The notes beneath the pieces are model-generated. The model made no database searches and was not told where the DNA came from. It was given only the letters and a program-made list of their open reading frames with translations. This document shows positions 745 to 58,982 of a DNA stretch of 64,000 nucleotides, one piece after another; position 1 is the stretch's first letter, and each line of letters starts with the position of its first letter. The translations under genes were made by a program, and so were the position numbers. This DNA is from an uncultured Actinomycetes bacterium (GTDB lineage Bacteria > Actinomycetota > UBA4738 > JBBDTT01). The stretch spans positions 307,317 to 371,316 of the forward strand of contig CAVUMN010000003.1 in assembly GCA_963742735.1 (NCBI GenBank), given 5' to 3'.

Positions 745-2426
<1,682 letters not shown>

Positions 2427-2619
2427 GTCGGAGAGCGAGACGGCAGCGGGCGGGCGTGGAGGCTCGCCCGCTGCGCGTCTGATCGAGAGCCTTCGGGCTC
2501 TCGATCGCGCGTACTCCCGCGGCCATCACGGCCGGTGGTCCGCCCGGCGGCGGGCCTCGCTCGTCGACGAGGCCGTCGTCGAGCTGTTCCGCGCCGCCCG
2601 TGAGGAGGACGGCCCGGAG

Positions 2620-4953
2620 ATGGCCCTCGTCGCGATCGGGGGCTACGGGCGGGGCGAGCTCTGCCCGGCCAGCGACGTCGACCTGATGGTCCTGCACGGT
2701 GAGCGCCGGCCGGACCGGATCCGGGCGGTCGCCGAGCGGCTGTTCTACCCGCTGTGGGACACGGGGTTCGCTCTGGGCCACGCCGTCCGAAACGTCCGGG
2801 AGGCGGTGGCGGAGGCGCGCGCCGGGGTCGACACGGCGACCTCGCTCCTCGAGGCGCGGCTGCTGGCGGGCGGGGAGGGTCTGTTCGAGGACCTTCGGAC
2901 GAAGCTCGCCGCCTGGGTGGGGCGCGACCCGGCGGGCTTCGTGACCCGGCTCCTGGCGGCCGACGCCGAGCGCCAGGCCAAGCACGGCTCGGCCGCGCAC
3001 CTGATGGAGCCCGACGTGAAGGAGTCCGCCGGCGGCCTGCGAGACGTCCACTCGGTCGGCTGGGCGGCGCGGGCCCTGGGGCTGCCGTCCCGCGACGCGC
3101 TGGAGGCCGAGGGGCTCATGCGCCGAACCGAGCGGATCGCGCTCGACGACGCCGAGGAGTTCCTGGTGCGGATCCGCAGCGCCCTGCACCTGGAGGCGGG
3201 CAAGCGGGCCGACCGGCTGATCCTGGACCATCAGCCGCGCCTGGCCGCCGAGTTCGGATTCGATGCTACGGCCGGGTTGGACGCGGCCGACGCGCTGATG
3301 CGCTCGCTGTTCGGGCACGCCCGCCACGTGGAGCACGTCCGGGCCGTCGCCTTCGAACGGGTGCTCGCGCGAGCGCGCGGGGCCGGGCCGGCGGCCTCCA
3401 CGGGCTGGGCGGGTCGCGCGGACCCCGAGGGCGTGATGGAGGCGTTCGCCGCGTGGGCCGGCGGCGGCCCCCCGCCGTCGGCCGAGGCCCTCGACGAGCT
3501 CGAGCAGCGGCCGTTCGACCCACCCGACCGCTGGAGCGAGCGCACCCTCCGTGCGTTCCTGACGATCCTGCGGGCGGGCGACGCCGGTGCCCATGCGCTG
3601 GAGACGATGGATCGGATCGAGGTCCTGGCGCGCTTCGTGCCGGAGTGGGCGGACGTGCGATGCCGCCCGCAGCGCGACCCGTTCCACACGTTCACCGTGG
3701 ACGTCCACCTGATCCGGGCGACCTCTGAGGCCGCCCGCCTGCTCGGCGGGACGACCGGTGACGCCGTCGCTCGCGAGGCCGCCGCGATCGTCCCCGCCGA
3801 CCTGCTGCTCCTCGGGGCCTTCCTGCACGACGCAGGGAAGGTTGGCCTCGGCGAGCACGTCTCGACGGGGGTGCAGGTCGCGAAGCGGGTGCTGCGCCGG
3901 ATGGGGGTGGAGGGGGACGCGGCGACGACGGTCCGGTTCCTGGTGCACAACCACCTGCTGCTCGCCGACACCGCCACCCGGCGGGACCTCTCCGACCCGG
4001 AGCTCGTCCGCGAGGTCGCCGCGAAGGTGGGCAACGCGGAGCGCCTCGCCCTCCTCTACCTGCTGACCCTGGCCGACGCCAACGCCACCGGCCCGCACGC
4101 CCGCACGCCGTGGCGGCTCGGGCTGATCCGGGAGCTGGTGGCCAAGGTCGAGCGGGTCCTCGAGCACGGGGAGGCCGAGCCGGACCACGCCGTCGCCGCC
4201 GCCCGGCAGCCCGATCTTCGAGCGGCCCTGGAGGCCGAGGATCCCGACGCCGTGCGGCGCTTCCTGGAGCGGATGCCCGATCGCTATCTCGCCTCGATCG
4301 AGCCCGGCCTGGCGGCCGAGCACCTCCGGCTGGCCGAGCCCGATCCGCAGGCGAACGAGATCCGTACGGCCGTGGGACTCGGCGCCGGCCGGGGGACGTA
4401 CCGCCTGGCGGTGGTGGCCCAGGACCGGCCGGGTCTGCTCTCGCTGATCGCGGGCGCCCTCGCCCTGTCGGGGCTGTCGATCCTCGCCGCCCAGGCCTTC
4501 ACCACCGACGACGGCCTGGCCCTGGACCTGTTCGAGGTGGAGCCCGCCTTCCACGGCGAGGTCGACGAGGAGCGGTGGCGACGGTTCCGCTCCGACCTCC
4601 GCCATGCCCTCGAGGGCCGGCTGTCCCTGGATACCCGGGTCCGGGAGAAGCAGCGGCACTACCCACCGGCGCGCGCCGACCTCGAGACCCGTGTCCGTGT
4701 CGACAACGAGGCGTCGGCGGGGTTCACCGTCGTCGAGGTGTTCGCCCCCGACCGCGTCGGCCTGCTGTTCCAGGTCACCGACGCCCTGCACGACCTGGGG
4801 CTGGACGTGCACCTGGCCAAAGTGGCGACGTACGGCGCCCGGGTCGTGGACGCCTTCTACGTCCGCGACCTCGAGGGCCGAAAGCTCGAGGCGCCGGAGC
4901 TCGCCGAGGCGGTGCGGGCGGACGTGGAGGCCCGCCTCGTCCACGCGGACTGA
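2620..4953 (+). CDS. glnD: [protein-PII] uridylyltransferase / uridylyl-removing enzyme GlnD (start uncertain, may lie upstream with non-canonical start)
   Basis: NTase motif ALVAIGGYGRGELCPASDVDL, HD domain (HD..GK), two C-terminal ACT domains; same frame stays open back to about 2425 with homologous-looking N-terminal residues but no ATG/GTG/TTG. Confidence 0.85.
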   Translation: MALVAIGGYGRGELCPASDVDLMVLHGERRPDRIRAVAERLFYPLWDTGFALGHAVRNVREAVAEARAGVDTATSLLEARLLAGGEGLFEDLRTKLAAWVGRDPAGFVTRLLAADAERQAKHGSAAHLMEPDVKESAGGLRDVHSVGWAARALGLPSRDALEAEGLMRRTERIALDDAEEFLVRIRSALHLEAGKRADRLILDHQPRLAAEFGFDATAGLDAADALMRSLFGHARHVEHVRAVAFERVLARARGAGPAASTGWAGRADPEGVMEAFAAWAGGGPPPSAEALDELEQRPFDPPDRWSERTLRAFLTILRAGDAGAHALETMDRIEVLARFVPEWADVRCRPQRDPFHTFTVDVHLIRATSEAARLLGGTTGDAVAREAAAIVPADLLLLGAFLHDAGKVGLGEHVSTGVQVAKRVLRRMGVEGDAATTVRFLVHNHLLLADTATRRDLSDPELVREVAAKVGNAERLALLYLLTLADANATGPHARTPWRLGLIRELVAKVERVLEHGEAEPDHAVAAARQPDLRAALEAEDPDAVRRFLERMPDRYLASIEPGLAAEHLRLAEPDPQANEIRTAVGLGAGRGTYRLAVVAQDRPGLLSLIAGALALSGLSILAAQAFTTDDGLALDLFEVEPAFHGEVDEERWRRFRSDLRHALEGRLSLDTRVREKQRHYPPARADLETRVRVDNEASAGFTVVEVFAPDRVGLLFQVTDALHDLGLDVHLAKVATYGARVVDAFYVRDLEGRKLEAPELAEAVRADVEARLVHAD

Positions 4954-33090: not shown

Positions 33091-33164
33091 TGCGGGGTGG
33101 AGCAGTCAGGTAGCTCGCTGGGCTCATAACCCAGAGGTCACAGGTTCAAATCCTGTCCCCGCGA
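33091..33164 (+). tRNA. tRNA-Met (anticodon CAT), initiator-like (three G:C pairs in anticodon stem)
   Basis: Cloverleaf read by eye: D-arm GAGC/GCTC, anticodon stem CTGGG/CCCAG loop CTCATAA, T-arm ACAGG-TTCAAAT-CCTGT, acceptor CCCCGCG; near-identical to E. coli tRNA-fMet; ends +/-1. Confidence 0.85.
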
Positions 33165-33168
33165 CAAA
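33123..33168 (+). repeat. attL: 46-bp direct repeat (3' half of tRNA-Met + 4 nt)
   Basis: CTCATAACCCAGAGGTCACAGGTTCAAATCCTGTCCCCGCGACAAA identical at 33123-33168 and 42476-42521. Confidence 0.85.
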
Positions 33169-33248
33169 GGAAACCGCAGGTCAGAGCGCCTGCGAGCGGA
33201 TAGCCGGCCCTCGGAGACCACGGTCCCGGGGGCCGATCTGCAAACAGA

Positions 33249-33887
33249 TTGCAAACGAGGCGGGGAGCGGTGGAGATCTGGGAGCTTTTGGGCGCGCTCC
33301 TGGTGGGGTTCATCCTCGGGGCATACGAACGCGGCCGAACGCTCGAAATCGCCGTGGCGGTCCAGAAGCTCGAGCGGCAACAACAGGCTCTACTCCGGGC
33401 CCGCGAGAGGCTTAGGGAGCTACTCGCCACCTTTGGCCGCGACGCCCAATCGGATCCGCGATTCGGACTGAAGGGACAGCCGGATCGAGAATGGCTAGCA
33501 GCCAAGGATGCCCAACTCGCCCGGCTAAGGGAGTGGTGGAGGGGCTGGGTCGATGAGACGGAGCTGGCCGTTTATGACGACCAACTGCTGGCCCGAGTGC
33601 ATGGAGTCATGGGAGAAGGCAGGGCGCGTCGTCGCTACCCGCTTCTCTGGGAAGCCCAGGATTCCCTCGCGCTCTATTCGCTCAAGCCTGATGTGGTCTC
33701 TGCCTCGCTGGCCAATCGACACCTTGAGTTGGCGATGATCGCGCTTGGATACATCGAGGATTTCGTCAAACAGGCGATCCGAAGGATGGAGCCTCCAAGC
33801 CGCAGAGGGGGGCTGGCCTCCGCGCTGATGCTCTGGACACGGCGAGCGTGGCGACGCCTTGATACGTGGCTTAGCTCCTCCCGCTGA
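33249..33887 (+). CDS. hypothetical protein (element-encoded, N-terminal TM)
   Basis: 212-aa ORF between attL and int; N-terminal hydrophobic helix. Confidence 0.4.
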   Translation: MQTRRGAVEIWELLGALLVGFILGAYERGRTLEIAVAVQKLERQQQALLRARERLRELLATFGRDAQSDPRFGLKGQPDREWLAAKDAQLARLREWWRGWVDETELAVYDDQLLARVHGVMGEGRARRRYPLLWEAQDSLALYSLKPDVVSASLANRHLELAMIALGYIEDFVKQAIRRMEPPSRRGGLASALMLWTRRAWRRLDTWLSSSR

Positions 33888-33902: not shown

Positions 33903-35132
33903 CTACGCCTCGAGGATCATCGTGGCAACTCGGTTGGCTGCCTCCTCCTGAAGTCCCGCGATCGCGTGCGAGTACGTGTCCAGCGTGATGGAGACCGTCG
34001 CATGGCCGAGGCGCTCGCTTACGACCTTGGGATGAACGCCGGCGGCGAGGGCTGCCGTCGCGTAGGAGTGGCGCAGGTCGTGGAGTCTGATCCGGGGGAG
34101 CCCCGCGCCGCGAGCGTGACGGAGGAACTGATCGGCGAACGCCTCCGGGTGGATCAGGGAACCGTCCTCGCGGGTGAACACAAGGCCCGAGTCCTGCCAC
34201 GCCGGGCCCCATGCCATCCGCTCCTCAAGCTGGCGCTTGCGGTGCTCCCGCAGGCCGGCGACGGTGGCGGGGTCGAGGGCGAGCTGGCGGCGGCCCTTGC
34301 TGGTCTTGGGCTCTGAGGTCGCGGGCTTGCCGTCCACAACCACGAGCGTCTGTGTGATGGCCGTGCGGCCCGCGTCAAGGTCCACGTCCTGCCAGCGCAG
34401 CCCAAGGGCCTCGCCCCGGCGCATGCCGGTTGTGGCCAGCAGCAGCCACGCCCCGTAAAGCCGATCCTCCCGAACGTGGCCGAGGAACTGGCGCAGCTCG
34501 GGCGGAGCCCAGACGTTCATCTGGCGGCGTCCAACGCGGGGAGGGTCCGCAACCTCTGCGACGTTGCGAGTCACGCGCCCCCAGCGGAGCGCGTCCGAGA
34601 GCGCCTTGTGGATCACAACGTGAATGTTCCGGGCGGTCTTGGGGGAGAGGCCCTGGCCGTCGCGGCGTCCGTTGGCGAGCAGCCGGCCGTAGAACCCGTT
34701 GAGCGCGGCGGGGGAGAGCTTCTGCAAGGGCAGCGCACCCAGGGCCGGCACAACGTGCTTGTTGATATTCACGCGGTAGCTGGCCAGCGTGGTGGCCCGG
34801 ACGGTGGACTCGATCGCGGGCAGCCACTCCTCGAGGAGAAACTGCCCGAACGTGACCCGGCTCGGGGGGATGTACGTCCCGCGGTTCAGGCGGCCGAGGA
34901 TCTCGGGGAGCTCCTGCTGCGCCTCCCGCCGAGTCGGGAATCCGCCGTGCCATTGCTGGCGGCGCTCGTCCCGATCGGGGAGCAAGGCGGCTCCGCAGCG
35001 GGCGCAGTCATCGCGCCGGCCGTCCGCCGTCCAGTACCGGGTGCGGCAGGCAGGGCAGGACCGGGCGGGCTGGCGGCCCACGTCCACCACCACGGCCCAG
35101 GTGCTTCCGCGCTTCCGAACGTGACCCCTCAT
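33903..35132 (-). CDS. int: tyrosine-type site-specific integrase
   Basis: C-terminal catalytic RLHDLRHSYAT...HPKVVSERLGHATVSITLDTYSH (R..HxxR..Y); N-terminal arm-binding domain with CPACR...CARCG zinc ribbon; start Met44 of ORF computed at 35132. Confidence 0.9.
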   Translation of the reverse strand: MRGHVRKRGSTWAVVVDVGRQPARSCPACRTRYWTADGRRDDCARCGAALLPDRDERRQQWHGGFPTRREAQQELPEILGRLNRGTYIPPSRVTFGQFLLEEWLPAIESTVRATTLASYRVNINKHVVPALGALPLQKLSPAALNGFYGRLLANGRRDGQGLSPKTARNIHVVIHKALSDALRWGRVTRNVAEVADPPRVGRRQMNVWAPPELRQFLGHVREDRLYGAWLLLATTGMRRGEALGLRWQDVDLDAGRTAITQTLVVVDGKPATSEPKTSKGRRQLALDPATVAGLREHRKRQLEERMAWGPAWQDSGLVFTREDGSLIHPEAFADQFLRHARGAGLPRIRLHDLRHSYATAALAAGVHPKVVSERLGHATVSITLDTYSHAIAGLQEEAANRVATMILEA

Positions 35133-35770
35133 GACTTTGCCTTTCGCTTGCGGCCGGGCTTTGACCCGGCGGCCCTTCCGCGGCTCGTGGGGGGGAGCAG
35201 GCCCATTGCTCGGGCCCGTGCCACCCACTTGGCTGCGGCTGATTTGCTGACGTGGCCCCACTCCGCGACCCGGGCCGTTGGGTTCTTGAGGCCCGCCTTG
35301 AACGCTTCGGAGTAGACCCGGGCCACCTCGCGGAAGTGATCCGAGCCCAACGCGGGCGGCCGTCCAGGCTTGTTGCGGCGTGGGGTAGCGGCGAGGGCCC
35401 GCAAGGGCTTATCGGCGGCGAGCTGCTCTTGCCCGCTGCCGTGCTCGGAAACGTCGAGCAGATGCTCCGCGTACAACTCGAGCCGCTTGTCGATCAGCTC
35501 GGCGAGGGGCAGCTCGCGCTTGGTCGTCGCGGTCAGCCGGCGGAGGTCGCGGTCAGGGTGCCCCTTTGGCCTGCCATCCCGATCTGTATCGAAGGATCGA
35601 AGATCCAGCCCGACGCACTCCATCCGGCCATCGAGCTCGGCGAACCAGAGCGTTACGACCCACGGCCCCTTCCCGGGGTGCGGCCACAGGAACGAATCGC
35701 GCAGCCTGGGCACCTTGCTCATGCGTCGGGCCCGCTGGCTGTGGTACTCGAAGGTGCCCTCCTCGTTCAC
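35129..35770 (-). CDS. hypothetical protein upstream of and overlapping int (213 aa)
   Basis: 4-nt overlap with int start suggests co-transcription; no recognisable family. Confidence 0.5.
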   Translation of the reverse strand: MNEEGTFEYHSQRARRMSKVPRLRDSFLWPHPGKGPWVVTLWFAELDGRMECVGLDLRSFDTDRDGRPKGHPDRDLRRLTATTKRELPLAELIDKRLELYAEHLLDVSEHGSGQEQLAADKPLRALAATPRRNKPGRPPALGSDHFREVARVYSEAFKAGLKNPTARVAEWGHVSKSAAAKWVARARAMGLLPPTSRGRAAGSKPGRKRKAKS

Positions 35771-36122: not shown

Positions 36123-36340
36123 AGGCTCTCGAGGACTACCCCCTGGTGATGCGGCCCGAGGAGGTCGCCGAGGCCCTTCGCTGCGGGCGGTCCTCGGTCT
36201 ATGAAGCCATCCGCCGGGGGGACATTCGAGCAGTGCGCCTTGGCCGTCGCGTGCTGGTTCCCAGGGCCGCGCTGGAGGAGCTTCTGGGTATCCAGGGAGC
36301 GGCGCAGCCGGCTTCGGTTTCCGAGGAGAGTGGGGCATGA
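36119..36340 (+). CDS. xis: excisionase/AlpA-family HTH DNA-binding protein
   Basis: GTGA overlap with XRE gene; LVMRPEEVAEALRCGRSSVYEAIRRGDIRAVRLGRRVLV is excisionase-family HTH. Confidence 0.7.
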   Translation: MKALEDYPLVMRPEEVAEALRCGRSSVYEAIRRGDIRAVRLGRRVLVPRAALEELLGIQGAAQPASVSEESGA

Positions 36341-36720
36341 CGGAGCCGGGCGACGTGCTCGCCGAGGTCATCAGCTTCCGCCGGGCCGCTCGGGCCATCG
36401 TCCGCGACGCATCGCTGGACAGGCACCAGAAGTACGCAGCCCTGATGCGACTGGCGATCCTCGCCCGTACCGAGGCTGCATTCCCGCGAGCGGCGCAGGG
36501 AGTCGTCGCTGATGAGGCGATCCCGCTACTGCATCCCGGGATGCATCCGGCACCGATCGACCCGGCAGAGCGGGAAGCGCGGCGACTTCGCGCCCAAGGC
36601 TACGGGAGCTGCCCGACGTGCCTCCGGTCGCTTCCCACGAACGCCGAGCTTGACCGGTGGAGGCGGCTGGCGGAGGACGCTGCGATGCGAGCGGCTCGCC
36701 GGGAGGCTCTGGTTCCGTGA
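36337..36720 (+). CDS. hypothetical protein (127 aa)
   Basis: ATGA overlap with xis-like gene; C-terminal CPTC motif. Confidence 0.5.
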   Translation: MTEPGDVLAEVISFRRAARAIVRDASLDRHQKYAALMRLAILARTEAAFPRAAQGVVADEAIPLLHPGMHPAPIDPAEREARRLRAQGYGSCPTCLRSLPTNAELDRWRRLAEDAAMRAARREALVP

Positions 36721-38012
36721 GCTCCACCGAAACCGAGCTGCTCGACCGGGTGAAATCGAACCTGCCCCCGGCCGTGCTCCCTGCCCCCGAGGGCTGGCCA
36801 CGGCTGGACCCGGCCGCCCGGTACGGGCTGGCGGGCGAGTTCGTCGCAACCGTTGAGCCACACACGGAGGCGGACGCGGTTGGGCTGCTGGTGGACTTCC
36901 TCACCGCGTTCGGCTCCGCCGTTGGCCCTGGCCCTCACGTCGAGGCAGACGGCGCTCGCCATGCCGGCGCACTGTTCGCCCTCCTGGTGGGCAACACAAG
37001 CCGGGCTCGGAAGGGAACTGCCCGGAAGCAGGTCGCTCGGTTCTTCGAGGGGGCGGATGCGGCCTGGGCGACGGGATGCGTCAAGGGCGGCCTGGCGTCG
37101 GGCGAGGGACTGGTGGCCGCGCTCCAGGATCCGCCAGAGGGCGAGGGCCGGCGAGACCCCCGCCTGCTTCTGGTTGAGGAGGAGTTCGCCCGCCTCTTGG
37201 CCGCTGCCGGGCGTGAGGGCTCAACGCTGAGCCACGTTGCACGCCAAGCCTGGGATGGCGGCCCGATCGCGGTGCTCACCCGCAAGGACCCGCTGAGCGC
37301 TTCGCCGAGTCACGTCTCGCTGATTGGCCACGTCACCGAGGAGGAGCTGCGCCGGCGACTGAGCTCGACCGAGGCCGCGAACGGGTTCGGCAACCGTTTC
37401 CTGATCGTCTTGGTACGGCGCTCAAAGCTGCTGCCGAGCGGGGGCCGGCCTGCCGAGGGGGACTTTGTTCGCCTGGTTCGCTTTATTCGCAACCGGTTGG
37501 AGGACGCCAGGAGACACACGCTGATCCAGCGCTCTCCCGATGCGGAGGGGTTGTGGGCGGACCTGTATCGAAGGATGGCCGCCGAGGATGAGCCCGGGAT
37601 GGTGGGCGCACTTCTCGCCCGTGACTCCGCCCAGCTCCTCCGCCTTTCTCTGGTGTACGCGCTTACCGATGCCTCTCCGACGATCGAGGTCCCGCACCTA
37701 GAAGCGGCTTGGGCCCTGTGGCAGTACTCGGCGGAATCGGTGCGGCACATCTTCGGGACCGTGCTGGGGGACGAGACCGCCGATCGGCTGTACGCGGCGA
37801 TCCTGGAGATGGGGGCAAAGGGCCTCGATGGAAAGGGGCAGCACGCCGCGTACGGCCGGCATGTTGACGGGGCGGAACTCGACCGGGCCCGGGCCGAGCT
37901 TGAGGAGCGCGGCCTGATCGTGACGCTCAACGTGGACACGGGTGGCCGGCCCCGCCTGGTCTCCTACGCGAAAGAAGCGAATAAAGCGAAAGAAGGTCCC
38001 CGTGGCCCGTGA
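36717..38012 (+). CDS. large element-encoded protein, possibly DUF3987-like (replication-associated?)
   Basis: GTG start overlapping previous stop (GTGA); 431 aa; family assignment by weak recollection only. Confidence 0.5.
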   Translation: MSSTETELLDRVKSNLPPAVLPAPEGWPRLDPAARYGLAGEFVATVEPHTEADAVGLLVDFLTAFGSAVGPGPHVEADGARHAGALFALLVGNTSRARKGTARKQVARFFEGADAAWATGCVKGGLASGEGLVAALQDPPEGEGRRDPRLLLVEEEFARLLAAAGREGSTLSHVARQAWDGGPIAVLTRKDPLSASPSHVSLIGHVTEEELRRRLSSTEAANGFGNRFLIVLVRRSKLLPSGGRPAEGDFVRLVRFIRNRLEDARRHTLIQRSPDAEGLWADLYRRMAAEDEPGMVGALLARDSAQLLRLSLVYALTDASPTIEVPHLEAAWALWQYSAESVRHIFGTVLGDETADRLYAAILEMGAKGLDGKGQHAAYGRHVDGAELDRARAELEERGLIVTLNVDTGGRPRLVSYAKEANKAKEGPRGP

Positions 38013-38436
38013 GGCTGACATTGCCGAGTTCGAGGCAGCGCTAGAGCGCGGCGTGGTGGAGTTCGCAGAGCTTGCCGCCCAGGGCGACTGGGGGCGTGCT
38101 GAGACACAGCTCGGCGTGGTGTTTGGAATCGCCTGGCTCGTGAGCGCGTACGCCGATCGTGCGTGAGAGCTCCCAGGCCAAGGGCCGGCGCTACCTACCC
38201 GAGGGCCCGGCGGTATGTCCGAACGGCGGGGCCCGGCGGTATTCGAGAATCCGGGCGCTTCAAGCGCTACGACCTGCCCGTTTTCGGGCCTGCCCAGGAA
38301 TGAGCGACCAGGGATTCTGGATCGGAGTGGCAAGCGAGGCGGCGGAGGATGCCGAGCAGCGTTGAGGAAGTCAAGGCGGGCGCTTCTTGCCAGGTGCACC
38401 GGAACCATTGACATGTCTCGCGGCAGAGGCGTACAA

Positions 38437-38886
38437 ATGAGCTTGGTGAAAAGCGCTCTGGCAGGCGGAAAGAGATCGATCCTCGTTGCCGCTTTCTTGC
38501 TCGCGGTCGTCGGCTTTGCGGCAGTGCTAACTGCTAGCGGGGGGGCGGAGGACTCGTCGGGCCTCGACTGCCCCGATGGATTTCGTAACACAGCGGTCTT
38601 CGAGCAAGGGGCTGAGTACGCCCCGTCGCCGGAAGATTCCGTGATGCGGACTGAAATACTTACGCAGCTGTTTGACCTACCACCGCAGGAGCGCCGCATG
38701 GGTACTGGCGGATCCGCTCGAGGCGGTATCGTCCGCTCAGACAACCGAGGCAGGCCGGACCGGGCTTCCTTTCAAGTCTTCCTGGACTCAAAGCCGCGTG
38801 CTTTGGTGACTTCAGTTCTCGTGGAGCCTGGCAAATGGCGTGTTACCACCGTTGAGTACTGCCCAAGCGCGGGTTCCTCCGACTGA
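38437..38886 (+). CDS. secreted hypothetical protein (signal peptide), low-GC cargo
   Basis: MSLVKSALAGGKRSILVAAFLLAVVGFAAVLTASGG signal/TM; local GC clearly lower than flanks. Confidence 0.5.
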   Translation: MSLVKSALAGGKRSILVAAFLLAVVGFAAVLTASGGAEDSSGLDCPDGFRNTAVFEQGAEYAPSPEDSVMRTEILTQLFDLPPQERRMGTGGSARGGIVRSDNRGRPDRASFQVFLDSKPRALVTSVLVEPGKWRVTTVEYCPSAGSSD

Positions 38887-39670
38887 CATGAACCCCAACA
38901 TCGCCCCGCTTGATGCGAATGGCAAACGAGTGTGGCGGGGCCTTGAAGGACTTACCGTATTTGCGTGGGCGATCCTTCTGGCCTTTGGCCCCGTCACGAT
39001 GGCCTATGCCCATTCAGTAGATCAATTCTGGGGTCCCGAGTGGGCAAACCAGGATAGGGGAACAAGCAAGCAGCATTTTTCGGTGACCGAAGAGGTCCCC
39101 GGAACGACGTCTTCCGCGACTTGGCCCCTGCGCGTCTACCAAGGGTCAGTAAGGTGGAACAACGTAGACATCGTCGATCCGGACATGTCATTCGGCGTAA
39201 AAGCCGCCATCGTCGCCAACTACAGCCCTTACAATCATTGCGGCTCGGACTACTTCTTTGAGAACGGCATGCACTACCGTGATGTCGCCGGGGACTCTTT
39301 GGCCGTGACGATCGTTTGCACCCAGAACACGATTTGGGGAGACCAGATTCGCAACTACCAAATGGTCTTCGACCCCAATGCCACTACGTGGTACACCGGA
39401 TCGGACCCCGATGCGGTGCCGTCCGGCTCAATGGATTTGATATACGTCGCTTCTCACGAGTTCGGCCACGCCGCTGGTGGCTGGAGCGATGACACTCCTG
39501 GCGGTCACTATGACTCGGCCAACAACAGCTTACTTTGCGGCATAGGTGTACCGGTGATAGATAGGCACACGATGTGCGCTTCAGCGACAGCCGGGCGGAC
39601 GCTTGACTCGAGGGCGCTCGAGTATCACGACGTCGACGTTTTCATCGAGGTCTACGATTTCGGCGGTTAG
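38887..39670 (+). CDS. secreted HExxH zinc metallopeptidase-like protein (metzincin-like)
   Basis: ATG directly after upstream TGA; N-terminal TM/signal (LTVFAWAILLAFGPVTMAYA); LIYVASHEFGHAAGGW motif; low GC. Confidence 0.6.
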
Positions 39671-39818: not shown

Positions 39819-40232
39819 TCAGCCATCGGCGAGGATCTCCCTGACTCGAGCCTCGCCGAGATGCTTCTCGAGCGTTTCTAGACGCCGCTGCCGATCCTTC
39901 TGCTCCCGCTCCCACTCCTCCCACCACTCGTCGAATTGGTCGCGTAGCACCTCCGAGCCCGGTTCGGTGCGCGGTGGGCTGGCCTCCTTCGCCACCGGCC
40001 CCAAGACACGCTCTAGAACCGTGGTAGCGGCGCGCAGACGGAGGCGCGGGTCCTCCGCATCGAGCAGGTCCACGAGCGTGGTGGCGGCCTTGTCCGCGTG
40101 GAGCTCGAGCCGCTCGAGGGTTTCCCCGATCCGATCTAGCCGGCGGCGTTCACGCTCGGCCGCACCAAGGACACCGTTCGCTTTGGGATCGGGACCGTCC
40201 GGGGAGCCGAAGGGCTTGCCTCGCACGGCCAC
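39819..40232 (-). CDS. hypothetical protein, paralog of 40252..40701 (FGxPDGPDP motif)
   Basis: Shares FGSPDGPDP...ERERRRL with neighbour's FGQPDGPDP...VRERRL; coiled-coil-like charged C-terminus. Confidence 0.5.
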   Translation of the reverse strand: MAVRGKPFGSPDGPDPKANGVLGAAERERRRLDRIGETLERLELHADKAATTLVDLLDAEDPRLRLRAATTVLERVLGPVAKEASPPRTEPGSEVLRDQFDEWWEEWEREQKDRQRRLETLEKHLGEARVREILADG

Positions 40233-40251: not shown

Positions 40252-40701
40252 CTAATGGGGCCCCTCCGCTTGTTCGTGGGCTTCCATCTCGGCCAGCAGT
40301 TCGTCTACACGGCGGGAGAACTCGCCACGGGAGGTGTGCTCGATGTGCTGGTCGGCCTGGCCTATGGCCTGCTCAACTAGCCACCGGGCGTTCTGGGTGC
40401 GGATGGACCACGCCTCTTCGCCTTTGCGGGTGGCCCCCTTGATGGCCTCGAGGATGGTCTGGACAGCGCGAGGGGCGTTGAGGATCAGGGCTTGGCGGGT
40501 CTGGTCACGTCGCTGCTCGAGCCGGCGCTCCCTCACCTCGGTGGCTTTCCTGGCAGCCGCTACAGGATCGGGTCCGTCAGGCTGACCGAACCGGGTTCTA
40601 GAGCCCGCGTCACGCGGTCTGACCTGCTCATTCGCGGAGGCTCCCACGGCTCGATCGTATGGCCGGGGGGCGTTTGCATCGCGTTTGCGAGCCCCGAACA
40701 A
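40252..40701 (-). CDS. hypothetical protein, paralog of 39819..40232
   Basis: See above; tandem duplicated pair. Confidence 0.5.
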   Translation of the reverse strand: MFGARKRDANAPRPYDRAVGASANEQVRPRDAGSRTRFGQPDGPDPVAAARKATEVRERRLEQRRDQTRQALILNAPRAVQTILEAIKGATRKGEEAWSIRTQNARWLVEQAIGQADQHIEHTSRGEFSRRVDELLAEMEAHEQAEGPH

Positions 40702-40816
40702 AGGCCCGTTTACCTGCGGTTATGGGGAACCCTCTGGGTTGCTCACCCACTAGTTTGAGGTCCCCATTGACCATGGCGGAACCAGCGGCCGAGGATGGGG
40801 GATCGCGGGGGGCAGT

Positions 40817-41849: not shown

Positions 41850-42313
41850 TGACCTGCGGTTTCTGTTGAGCCGGGCTCCAACGGACCTGGCCCCGCTAGA
41901 CCGATGCTTCTAGCATGCTGACCTGCGCTTTCCCCCCAGTTTCGGCCCAGTTCCGCGCCACCGAACTGGATATTGGGGTGGGGCCCCCTGCACGCCCCGC
42001 GTCACGCGGCCTGACCTGCGGTTTTTGGGAGAACGCTTCTACCGTTCTGACCTGCGGTTTTCATGGGGCTTGGCTTCATCCGAGCGACCTGCAACAACCC
42101 GCCCCCAAGCCGTGGATGATCCACGCTGACCTGCGGTTTTGGGTCGCCGGGGCGTCATGCGATGAACCCTTCCGACCTGCGGTTATCCCGTGGCCCCCCC
42201 CTACCCGCCGGTTCTACCGGTCTGACCTGCGGCTTTCGTGTGTCGTGGGCCCCCAACCCCCGTGCTTGTGAGGCACTAGGCTTTCGAGCGATGATCGTTC
42301 GTGACCTGCGGTT
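41850..42313 (+). repeat. cluster of nine direct 13-bp repeats TGACCTGCGGTTT (iteron/arm-site-like), noncoding
   Basis: Copies at 41850, 41919(v), 42012, 42048, 42085(v), 42127, 42173(v), 42222, 42301; three share extended TGACCTGCGGTTTTTGGG. Confidence 0.8.
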
Positions 42314-42475
42314 TTTGGGTCGCCGATCCCGCCGTCGATGCAAACGCTCTGCAAACGAACGCCGCACGTTCAAGCCTCGGCGAGACGGACGGGGGTGGAC
42401 AGGACGAGATGTGTTCCCGCACGGCCCAGCACGGGGCCGGACGCGACCTAGCTTGAGCGGACAGCGATCAGCAAA

Positions 42476-42521
42476 CTCATAACCCAGAGGTCACAGGTTC
42501 AAATCCTGTCCCCGCGACAAA
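42476..42521 (+). repeat. attR: duplicated 3' 46 nt of tRNA-Met followed by native terminator hairpin
   Basis: Identical to 33123-33168; followed by GAAGCCGCAGGtcacgcaCCTGCGGCTTC hairpin. Confidence 0.85.
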
Positions 42522-42617
42522 CGCGAAGCCGCAGGTCACGCACCTGCGGCTTCTCGCGTTGAAGGGGCGAATCCCCGGAGTCCGCGGCGGGTATGAACCA
42601 GGGAGGAGGTGGTCGTC

Positions 42618-58382: not shown

Positions 58383-58982
58383 ATGGCGACCGACGAGCCC
58401 CACCTCGTGATGCACGAGCTGCACCGCCGGGCGGGGGAGACCTTCAACGCAGTTCTCCGGCAGGCGAACGGGACGGACTGGCATGCCCCGACGCCGTGCG
58501 GGGAATGGGACGTTCGCGAGCTCGTTCACCATGTGGTCTCCGGCAACCTCTGGGTGCCCCCACTCGTGGCCGGCGAGAGCCTCGCCGAGGCGGGAGCACG
58601 CCTCGACGGCGACCTGCTCGGGGACGATCCGATCGGGGTCGGGCTGGCCTCGACCGTGGCGGCCACCGCGGCGTTCGATGAGCCCGGCGCCCTGGAGCGA
58701 ACGGTGGAGCTCTCGCGCGGGCCGTCTCCGGCCCTGGACTACTGCGCCGAGCGGATGAACGACCTGGCGATCCACGCCTGGGACCTGGCCGCGGCCCTCG
58801 GGGTCACCGTCGAGCTCGACCGCGAGTGCATGGCCGCGGCGACGGCGTACCACCGGCCGCAGGAGGCAGTGGGGCGGCCCGCAGGGATGTTCGGTCCGCC
58901 GGTCGATGTCGCGCCGGACGCCGATCCACAGACCCGCTTCCTGGCGTTCTGGGGCCGACGCGCCGACTGGGCCCCCGAATAG
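58383..58982 (+). CDS. DinB/YfiT-like (mycothiol-dependent maleylpyruvate isomerase N-terminal domain, TIGR03086-like) protein
   Basis: HELHRRAGETFNAV...WDVRELVHHVV family signature. Confidence 0.65.
   Translation: MATDEPHLVMHELHRRAGETFNAVLRQANGTDWHAPTPCGEWDVRELVHHVVSGNLWVPPLVAGESLAEAGARLDGDLLGDDPIGVGLASTVAATAAFDEPGALERTVELSRGPSPALDYCAERMNDLAIHAWDLAAALGVTVELDRECMAAATAYHRPQEAVGRPAGMFGPPVDVAPDADPQTRFLAFWGRRADWAPE

Follow-up and report, generated by a model that had tools for sequence, protein, structure and literature searches.

A non-coding array of 13-nucleotide direct repeats in an integrated actinobacterial island carries a motif common to phage cos ends and attachment sites

An integrated island with an array of direct repeats

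We analysed a 64,000-nucleotide stretch of DNA from an uncultured Actinomycetes bacterium (contig CAVUMN010000003.1, positions 307,317 to 371,316; hereafter the window), which carries a 9.4-kb island integrated at a tRNA-Met gene and, near one end of that island, a non-coding array of direct repeats of the 13-mer TGACCTGCGGTTT. The island is bounded by a 46-bp identity, recovered by local alignment, between positions 33123–33168 and 42476–42521. The left copy (attL, + strand) runs from the anticodon loop to 3 nt beyond the end of a complete tRNA-Met(CAT) gene that ARAGORN finds at 33091–33165 (+), and whose 3′ part is contributed by the island. The right copy (attR, +) is a partial tRNA-Met 3′ half in which ARAGORN finds no tRNA.

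Between these two att repeats lies a module for integration, excision and replication. A tyrosine integrase gene (33903–35261, −; Pfam PF00589, PF14659 and PF14657; phrog_1) encodes an N-terminal arm-DNA-binding domain. It is accompanied by a gene for a small HTH_17 protein of the excisionase/MerR-like type (36149–36340, +, start codon inferred; Pfam PF12728, E = 1.2e-12; excisionase PHROGs), which is probably the Xis of the island, and by a gene for a helicase-like replication protein of the DUF3987 family (36657–38012, +; phrog_5311 and phrog_3022). Conjugation, virion, terminase and known defence genes were not detected in the island with Pfam, PHROGs or PADLOC. This is gene content of the satellite type, and it suggests that the island is a phage-satellite-like element.

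The array occupies positions 41850–42314 (+) and comprises eight direct copies of TGACCTGCGGTTT with zero to two mismatches, starting at 41850, 41919, 42012, 42048, 42127, 42173, 42223 and 42302. Start-to-start spacings of 69, 93, 36, 79, 46, 50 and 79 nt are irregular and unphased, and they agree with the range of 36–93 bp given in an earlier note on this DNA, which was made from the sequence alone. That note counted nine direct copies; eight of them hold, and the ninth is a weak unit, CGACCTGCAACAA at about 42086, that retains only the 7-mer GACCTGC. It also described three extended copies, two of which (42012 and 42302) match TGACCTGCGGTTTTTGGG exactly and one of which (42127) is a single T shorter. 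The 3′ extension reads TTTT(T)GGGTCGCC, with T-runs and C-runs 3′ of the array copies, and the 12 nt upstream divide the units into three sub-families (GATGAWC, sTTCTAsC and GsGTCACsC). Despite these diverged flanks the 13-mer is perfect in five of the eight copies, the orientation is the same throughout, and no copy contains tRNA-derived sequence.

Such a concentration of matches is not expected by chance. When up to two mismatches are allowed, the 13-mer has 12 matches in the window versus 0.98 ± 1.04 expected, and none of 100 shuffles reached 12. The array region has no coding GC3 signal (G+C content at third codon positions), and the open reading frame (ORF) at 41915–42271, which translates as LTCAF/LTCGF, is therefore the repeat read as protein, just as the earlier note had it. 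Regional G+C content is 0.63–0.67, without an AT-rich block, in a window of 70% G+C. Promoter-like sites (AT-rich hexamers) were not found in the region, and a weak terminator-like hairpin overlaps one copy only (42012); the copies were on these grounds rejected as promoters or terminators. A clustered regularly interspaced short palindromic repeat (CRISPR) locus, already discounted in the earlier note, is indeed ruled out by a conserved unit of 13 nt at irregular spacings of 36–93 nt, compared with the regular repeats of 24–48 nt in CRISPR arrays. Rfam holds no relevant family for the array, the sole match being a chance microRNA on the hairpin at the host side of the island (E = 0.84).

The host part of the window (54 kb) contains the 10-mer of the motif only as an inverted copy in the tRNA-Met trailer. 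Judged by these 54 kb, the motif is therefore not a host repeat of the repetitive extragenic palindromic (REP) or miniature inverted-repeat transposable element (MITE) type. The earlier note had allowed that it might be a common repeat unrelated to the island; it did prove to be common, in actinobacterial phages and islands rather than in this host DNA. The array is thus supported as a set of genuine, non-random, non-coding and asymmetric sites, of a kind that proteins bind, that is physically tied to the att sites.

Arrangement of the attachment sites

Two inverted copies of the 13-mer accompany the att repeats. An exact one (33171–33183, −; AAACCGCAGGTCA on the + strand) starts 6 nt past the tRNA end in the P′ arm and forms a weak hairpin (CGCAGG/CCTGCG); it follows the attL core, where the identity block ends at 33168, in the place that the earlier note had assigned to it. 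The other is an inverted one-mismatch copy at 42526–42538, held in the 5′ arm of a 15-bp host-side hairpin (42522–42556, +; CGCGAAGCCGCAGGT / ACCTGCGGCTTCTCG). Its position in the hairpin was described correctly in that note, but the gap to the end of the attR block at 42521 is 4 nt, not 8.

A second motif, M2, is also found on both sides of the core. The pair TGCAAAC-AGAT-TGCAAACGA lies in the P′ arm (33239–33258, +) and the pair TGCAAAC-GCTC-TGCAAACGA in the P arm (42339–42358, +), separated by 25 nt from the end of the array and by 117 nt from the core that follows. The general form TGCAAAC-N4-TGCAAACGA has three matches in the window versus none expected; these two are exact, one on each side of the core, and the third is an inverted pair with two mismatches (40670–40689, −). 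Both exact pairs are in 11-bp register, and the one in the P arm is closer to the core than is the array. The predicted order in the circular form of the island is array, TGCAAAC pair, core, inverted 13-mer, TGCAAAC pair and int, and in this predicted circle the array is the distal P arm.

The attP of phage L5 carries TGCAACTC pairs in both arms, which are the experimentally defined L5 arm-type sites, and that of Bernal13 carries GCAAAC pairs. The TGCAAAC pairs of the island are likewise present in both arms, and the 13-mer array lies outside them. By this comparison the TGCAAAC-N4-TGCAAACGA pairs are probably the true arm-type sites of the integrase, a role that they fit better than do the 13-mers.

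The motif in other mobile elements

The motif core, CTGACCTGCGG, is not specific to the island but is widespread in actinobacterial mobile elements. IMG/VR contigs were scanned for two copies of TGACCTGCGG situated 15–45 nt apart, an earlier scan for 9-mer pairs having been swamped by coding repeats from pentapeptide and collagen-like proteins. At least 120 matches were obtained, compared with fewer than ten expected by chance according to a rough estimate of our own. Among the matches listed, 87 distinct non-coding pairs remain after removal of coding repeats; they reside on contigs of 34–72% G+C, have a consensus of approximately gcCTCTGACCTGCGG-WWWY-GC, and are found at loci with no homologue of an island protein except distant integrases. 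Inverted motif pairs, with arms of up to 24 bp, occur on 22 further contigs.

A synthetic motif query against 50,697 GenBank phages returned 377 records, all with actinobacterial hosts: Mycobacterium (347), Gordonia (12), Streptomyces (8), Nocardia (3), Corynebacterium, Eggerthella and Rhodococcus (2 each) and Mycolicibacterium (1). Matches on plasmids are similarly distributed, with 18 of 19 being actinobacterial, although two of these were rejected as motif sites and attributed to coding coincidence in the GntR regulator peptide IASDLRERI. On plasmid pEN2701 (L340, 3001–3024), an extended motif, GCCTCTGACCTGCGGGAACGC, lies within GntR N-terminal coding sequence, and tRNA-Lys(UUU) genes contain GACCTGCGG on the complementary strand. 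The GntR peptide and tRNA-Lys(UUU) are therefore sources of false positives in motif scans.

Across the viral and metagenome loci the motif looks bipartite, with a constant (CTC)TGACCTGCGG followed by an extension of 4–8 nt. The extension is usually the same within one phage and differs between phages (AAACGC, TTATGC, ATGGCA, TTAGCA, TTTGAGCC and others).

Large arrays are rare. Among the matches listed, eight or more copies are found only in this island and on a 4-kb IMG/VR contig (L131), where 11 copies (2289–3142) adjoin terS-terL. The units on that contig place the motif in a hairpin loop on a unit-specific stem, followed by a unit-specific duplicated word (for example, CATCGGA twice or CCTAGCA twice). 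Literature searches for the motif sequence gave no description of it, returning only primers and tRNA-Lys att cores; their coverage was incomplete and the motif may be known elsewhere.

Placement at cos ends and attP

In cos phages of many clusters, the interval that separates the HNH gene from the terminase genes holds one to five copies of the motif, at 25–100 bp from the end of the genome. The order HNH endonuclease, motif (two to five copies), TerS, TerL and portal is repeated in six loci (L083, L237, L207, L232, L168 and L172). An alignment of one of these, L168, with phage IdentityCrisis places the motifs roughly 100–200 nt before position 1, with the last of them about 100 nt before it. 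Phage Taj (cluster F) has copies at 58452 and 58487 of 58550, as well as at position 57, and its type of end sequence is common to at least 224 cluster F records; Bernal13 (cluster T) has copies at 42309 and 42339 of 42392. Mycobacteriophages of about 70–76 kb, 53–60 kb and 42 kb, together with Gordonia and Nocardia phages, carry the motif approximately 51–72 nt from the right end, on either strand. Among the matches listed, 17 of the 87 distinct non-coding pairs end 23–96 nt from a contig end. These placements fit a best-defined position for the motif that is close to the cos cut and at a fixed distance from it.

The array itself bears some likeness to such ends. When aligned by eye, the array unit at 42174–42211 and the cos-proximal sequence of Bernal13 are alike at about 29 of 38 positions. 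As a separate observation, CAGCAAAC-like words follow the main motif on its 3′ side near cos in three phage contigs (L096, L140 and L275) and in Taj.

The motif is also positioned at attachment sites. Taj has six exact copies, three at cos and three around attP, where the sequence just upstream of int reads TGACCTGCGG, 10 nt, the tRNA 3′ half, 4 nt and CCGCAGGTCA. Bernal13 and L5 have a similar layout at attP with one or two mismatches. An inverted copy beside the core in the P′ arm, as in the island, is also present in Taj, L5, L312 and L063, and GCAGGTC(A) occurs 9–11 nt past the tRNA end at the junctions of the island, L063 and L312, and nearly so in L314.

Relatives of the DUF3987 module

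The nearest relatives of the DUF3987 protein, at 50–77% identity, come from Acidimicrobiia-like metagenome-assembled genomes (MAGs) and from metagenomes. Their modules combine a recombinase, an HTH_17 gene and the DUF3987 gene and adjoin tRNA genes, and none of the related DUF3987 islands examined lacks an HTH_17 gene. PF13148 is found in homologues of the DUF3987 protein, some of which also have a fused Prim-Pol or Toprim domain. In two relatives the module is linked to packaging genes: in L316 (5852–8182), an HNH gene, a weak TerS match (Terminase_7) and a TerL-like protein adjoin DUF3987, and in L314 (3738–5730), a single canonical motif lies directly 5′ of an 83-aa gene and a weak TerL-ATPase-like gene. 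These two loci suggest that such actinobacterial satellites form a family whose members differ in their packaging modules. A canonical copy of the motif (L006, 6446–6455, −) also overlaps the int stop codon at the edge of an Acidimicrobiales island with DUF3987 and integrase genes.

Closer relatives of the island were sought in two ways. With the entire island as query, megablast against phages and plasmids matched a tRNA fragment only, and a metagenome scan yielded 22 loci, mostly two-copy pairs, with no sibling island among them. An apparent array in L001, the closest DUF3987 locus, was rejected as coding sequence, which reads as hisD-like.

Tandem iteron arrays adjoin DUF3987 genes in distant relatives, which are MAGs of other phyla (L050, 11253–11342; L052, 11588–11728; L069, 9824–9991). 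Their units (TTTAACGAA, in four tandem copies with a fifth nearby; GCGACAAAA/GCGACATAA; and TCGTCAAAT) are lineage-specific and unrelated to the 13-mer. This arrangement is consistent with DUF3987 proteins acting as origin-binding initiators. Short exact direct repeats are also found at or just after the 3′ end of the island's DUF3987 gene (GGGCCCGGCGGTAT at 38203–38216 and 38229–38242; GCGAAAGAAG at 37968–37977 and 37986–37995), and these are a possible alternative candidate for the origin.

A candidate docking array for phage packaging factors

It is likely that the array copies are protein-binding sites, a proposition that is common to the packaging, excisionase and architectural-factor explanations considered here. 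What the sites are for is a more tentative matter. The satellite gene content of the island and the link of its relatives to packaging genes favour a role in recruiting packaging factors. We therefore prefer, as a possibility that falls somewhat short of even chances, the explanation that the array is a protein-docking array borrowed from phage cos regions, which would let a helper phage package the excised island.

Under this proposal, CTGACCTGCGG would serve actinobacterial mobile elements as a cis-acting docking site, and the array would be an expanded cluster of putative binding sites, each built on CTGACCTGCGG and a short T-rich tail. The island would excise at tRNA-Met and replicate from an origin near the DUF3987 gene. 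In the resulting circle, the array of eight to ten copies beside attP would recruit the factor that marks the cos regions of co-resident phages, which may be the terminase or HNH protein directly or else a shared architectural protein. Either the island DNA would be packaged as a result, or the island would compete with the helper phage for packaging. The sequence data establish the array, the anatomy of the island and the distribution of the motif with its placement at phage ends, and from these we infer protein binding, a binder, packaging and a helper phage.

The closest cos-type systems are P4 with P2, SaPIbov5 with phi12/phiSLT, and the cos subsites of lambda (cosQ, the R sites of cosB, and IHF sites I1 and I2). 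Like cos satellites, the island combines an integrase and a replication module without virion genes, and has a cis element in common with phages, in which it lies at a short, near-constant distance from the cos cut. The island differs in having 8–10 dispersed copies rather than a compact cos site, in carrying a motif that spans many phage clusters of low nucleotide similarity rather than a helper-specific one, and in the presence of that motif at attP as well. The array is best filed with the cis-acting accessory sites of phage cos and att regions and with cos-bearing satellites. Its copy number, the phylum-wide conservation of its motif and the dual placement of that motif at cos and att are unusual.

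Another known class of repeated phage site is the stoperator of cluster A mycobacteriophages. The island resembles it in having an asymmetric 13-bp site repeated in one orientation. Stoperators, however, are dispersed genome-wide, are specific to one cluster and bind the repressor of that cluster, whereas the island motif is clustered and is common to several phage clusters.

Several observations weigh against a packaging role. Both IdentityCrisis and HK97 are without the motif, which is thus dispensable for some related packaging systems, and HK97 was for the same reason set aside as an archetype of the HNH-cos arrangement. The L316 locus has HNH, TerS and TerL yet no motif, and the orientation of the motif relative to the terminase genes varies (L172 and L098). 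No cos cleavage sequence or helper phage was identified for the island, and an exact search for the extended array unit found it absent from viral contigs. The island also has no recognisable terS, HNH or capsid-remodelling gene. Furthermore, the presence of the motif at att sites and tRNA trailers shows that it is not purely a packaging signal. Copies lie beside the attP cores of Taj, Bernal13 and L5 and come after tRNA ends at island junctions, so that recombination, or a function in the flank 3′ of the tRNA, could account for the motif in the island with no packaging involved.

A broader formulation would accommodate both placements. In this formulation, CTGACCTGCGG would be the site of an undescribed sequence-specific factor that marks cos ends and attP as a counterpart of IHF, and that belongs to Actinobacteria in general or else comes from a conserved domain of their phages. 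The array would have evolved as a high-avidity landing pad or sponge that hijacks the packaging of a helper phage, or that titrates the factor and so interferes with the phage. We regard this as rather unlikely.

If the motif is a packaging or architectural site, it would provide a simple sequence marker for actinobacterial cos regions and for phage satellites, which to our knowledge have barely been described in Actinobacteria. It would also point to a DNA-binding factor that hundreds of mycobacteriophages have in common, among them members of clusters employed in genetics and therapy. The island itself is re-annotated as a candidate phage satellite instead of a generic integrated element, and the TGCAAAC pairs replace the 13-mer array as the candidate arm-type sites.

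Alternative explanations

The HTH_17 protein of the island, as an Xis/MerR/BldC-like multimer, could bind the repeats head-to-tail and so bend the P arm for excision, repress transcription into attP, or both. We consider this doubtful. Its gene is present in the island and in all the related DUF3987 islands examined, and the repeats are asymmetric, direct and located in the P arm, which is where the sites of recombination directionality factors (RDFs) lie in lambda and L5. Known RDF sites, however, consist of two to four closely packed copies between arm and core, whereas the array covers 460 bp on the far side of the candidate arm sites, with its copies at irregular, unphased intervals of 36–93 bp.

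A precedent is offered by D29 gp36, an excisionase/MerR-like homologue of L5 Xis, whose targets are GC-rich direct repeats (AGGCGGC-N13-AGGCGGC, as well as sets of four) and which acts as a repressor of the genes downstream (PMC12266134). Together with the motif copies that flank the attP cores of Taj, Bernal13 and L5, this precedent speaks for the HTH_17 protein. The island is similar to the D29 gp36, Streptomyces BldC and L5 Xis systems in its asymmetric, GC-rich direct repeats of variable number, in its putatively cognate small HTH_17 gene and in the location of the repeats near att or genome ends. The target motif of gp36 is nevertheless a different one, with GCGGC repeats at 13–19-nt spacing compared with CTGACCTGCGG at 36–93 nt in the island. 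In addition, the island motif is nearly invariant across unrelated phages even though Xis proteins diverge fast, and its fixed distance to cos ends is left unexplained by an RDF role alone.

An architectural host factor is an unlikely alternative. Such a factor would be a phylum-wide, sequence-specific DNA bender that serves integrases at attP and terminases at cos as an analogue of IHF, and the array would scaffold an intasome or the nucleoid. This would account for a motif that is confined to one host phylum, yet is carried by phages whose terminases and integrases have little or no detectable similarity. The motif is present at both cos and attP and in either orientation, and in lambda IHF sites are likewise found at both cos and attP. 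Moreover, in at least five elements it occupies a fixed, H′-like place beside the core in the P′ arm.

We know of no sequence-specific actinobacterial DNA-bending factor of such a kind. The mycobacterial protein mIHF is ruled out as the binder because its chromatin immunoprecipitation sequencing data yielded no motif and its binding is non-specific (PMC6155035). Nucleoid proteins do not typically recognise sites that are nearly invariant over 10–13 bp, no copy is present outside the tRNA trailer in the 54 kb from the host, and eight distal copies exceed the needs of an intasome.

The earlier note had suggested a set of replication iterons, which here would be bound by the DUF3987 helicase/initiator in the manner of a SaPI (Staphylococcus aureus pathogenicity island) ori or the P4 ori/crr. 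This did not withstand comparison and we consider it very improbable. In its favour, the island does encode a DUF3987 replication protein, distant relatives do have iteron arrays, and a second iteron cluster in P4 (crr) lies kilobases from ori. Like SaPIs, related phage-inducible chromosomal islands and P4, the island is a small integrative element with a protein of a replication helicase/primase family. Unlike the iterons of those elements, the array is not beside the rep gene, is not tandem, has no AT-rich unwinding region that we could find, and is built on a motif that is not lineage-specific. It lies 3.8 kb downstream of the DUF3987 gene, is irregular and lacks promoter-like AT-rich hexamers, whereas in the relatives each lineage has iterons of its own (TTTAACGAA, GCGACAAAA and TCGTCAAAT), set in close tandem directly beside the gene. 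Each kind of iteron is specific to one Rep protein, and this motif occurs in hundreds of phages and other elements that have no DUF3987 homologue. The GGGCCCGGCGGTAT repeats after the DUF3987 gene, moreover, offer another candidate origin.

Non-functional debris, in the form of duplicated or accreted fragments of att flanks and terminators left by earlier integrations at the tRNA, is very improbable. The motif does form one arm of the tRNA-trailer hairpins, a degenerate inverted P′-like module is found at 40596–40745, and the sub-families of array units suggest segmental duplication. Against this explanation stand the five perfect copies with diverged flanks, the single orientation, the lack of tRNA-derived sequence and the conservation of the motif at defined functional positions in many phages.

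Finally, the other proposal of the earlier note, that the array consists of arm-type or core-type sites of the island's own integrase, has very little probability left, because, although this integrase has an arm-DNA-binding domain and the core is flanked by motif copies, the TGCAAAC pairs fit such a role better (11-bp register, both arms, L5/Bernal13-like) with the array outside them, and the motif accompanies integrases only 22–29% identical to that of the island and occurs at cos, far from att.

Other features of the island

Two paralogous genes for small helical proteins, orf137 (39819–40232, −) and orf149 (40252–40701, −), lie between the replication module and the array. Their paralogy is supported at E = 3e-8, and both products carry FGxPDGPDP. 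Neither has a family match in Pfam, PHROGs or PADLOC, and only two homologues were found among 5.8 billion proteins, one of them 99% identical and encoded on a 963-kb contig. An impression from FGxPDGPDP that these proteins might be TerS was unsupported by Pfam, PHROGs, PADLOC or BLAST against terminase small subunits.

The degenerate module (40596–40745), which sits in the divergent region between orf149 and orf123, contains an extra array-type unit at 40620–40632, a two-mismatch 13-mer at 40710–40722 (+), the inverted TGCAAAC (M2) pair at 40670–40689 and an inverted tRNA-like fragment, CCTCTGGGTT, at 40731. The earlier note listed neither the unit at 40620–40632 nor the 13-mer at 40710–40722. 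This module is a degenerate inverted copy of the P′ arm layout and may be an operator or a relic of an att site. The remaining island genes include several orphan ORFs, one of which (38840–39670, +) encodes 276 aa with a HEFGH zinc-metalloprotease-like motif, lies in the part of the island with the lowest G+C content (0.57–0.59) and is possibly cargo.

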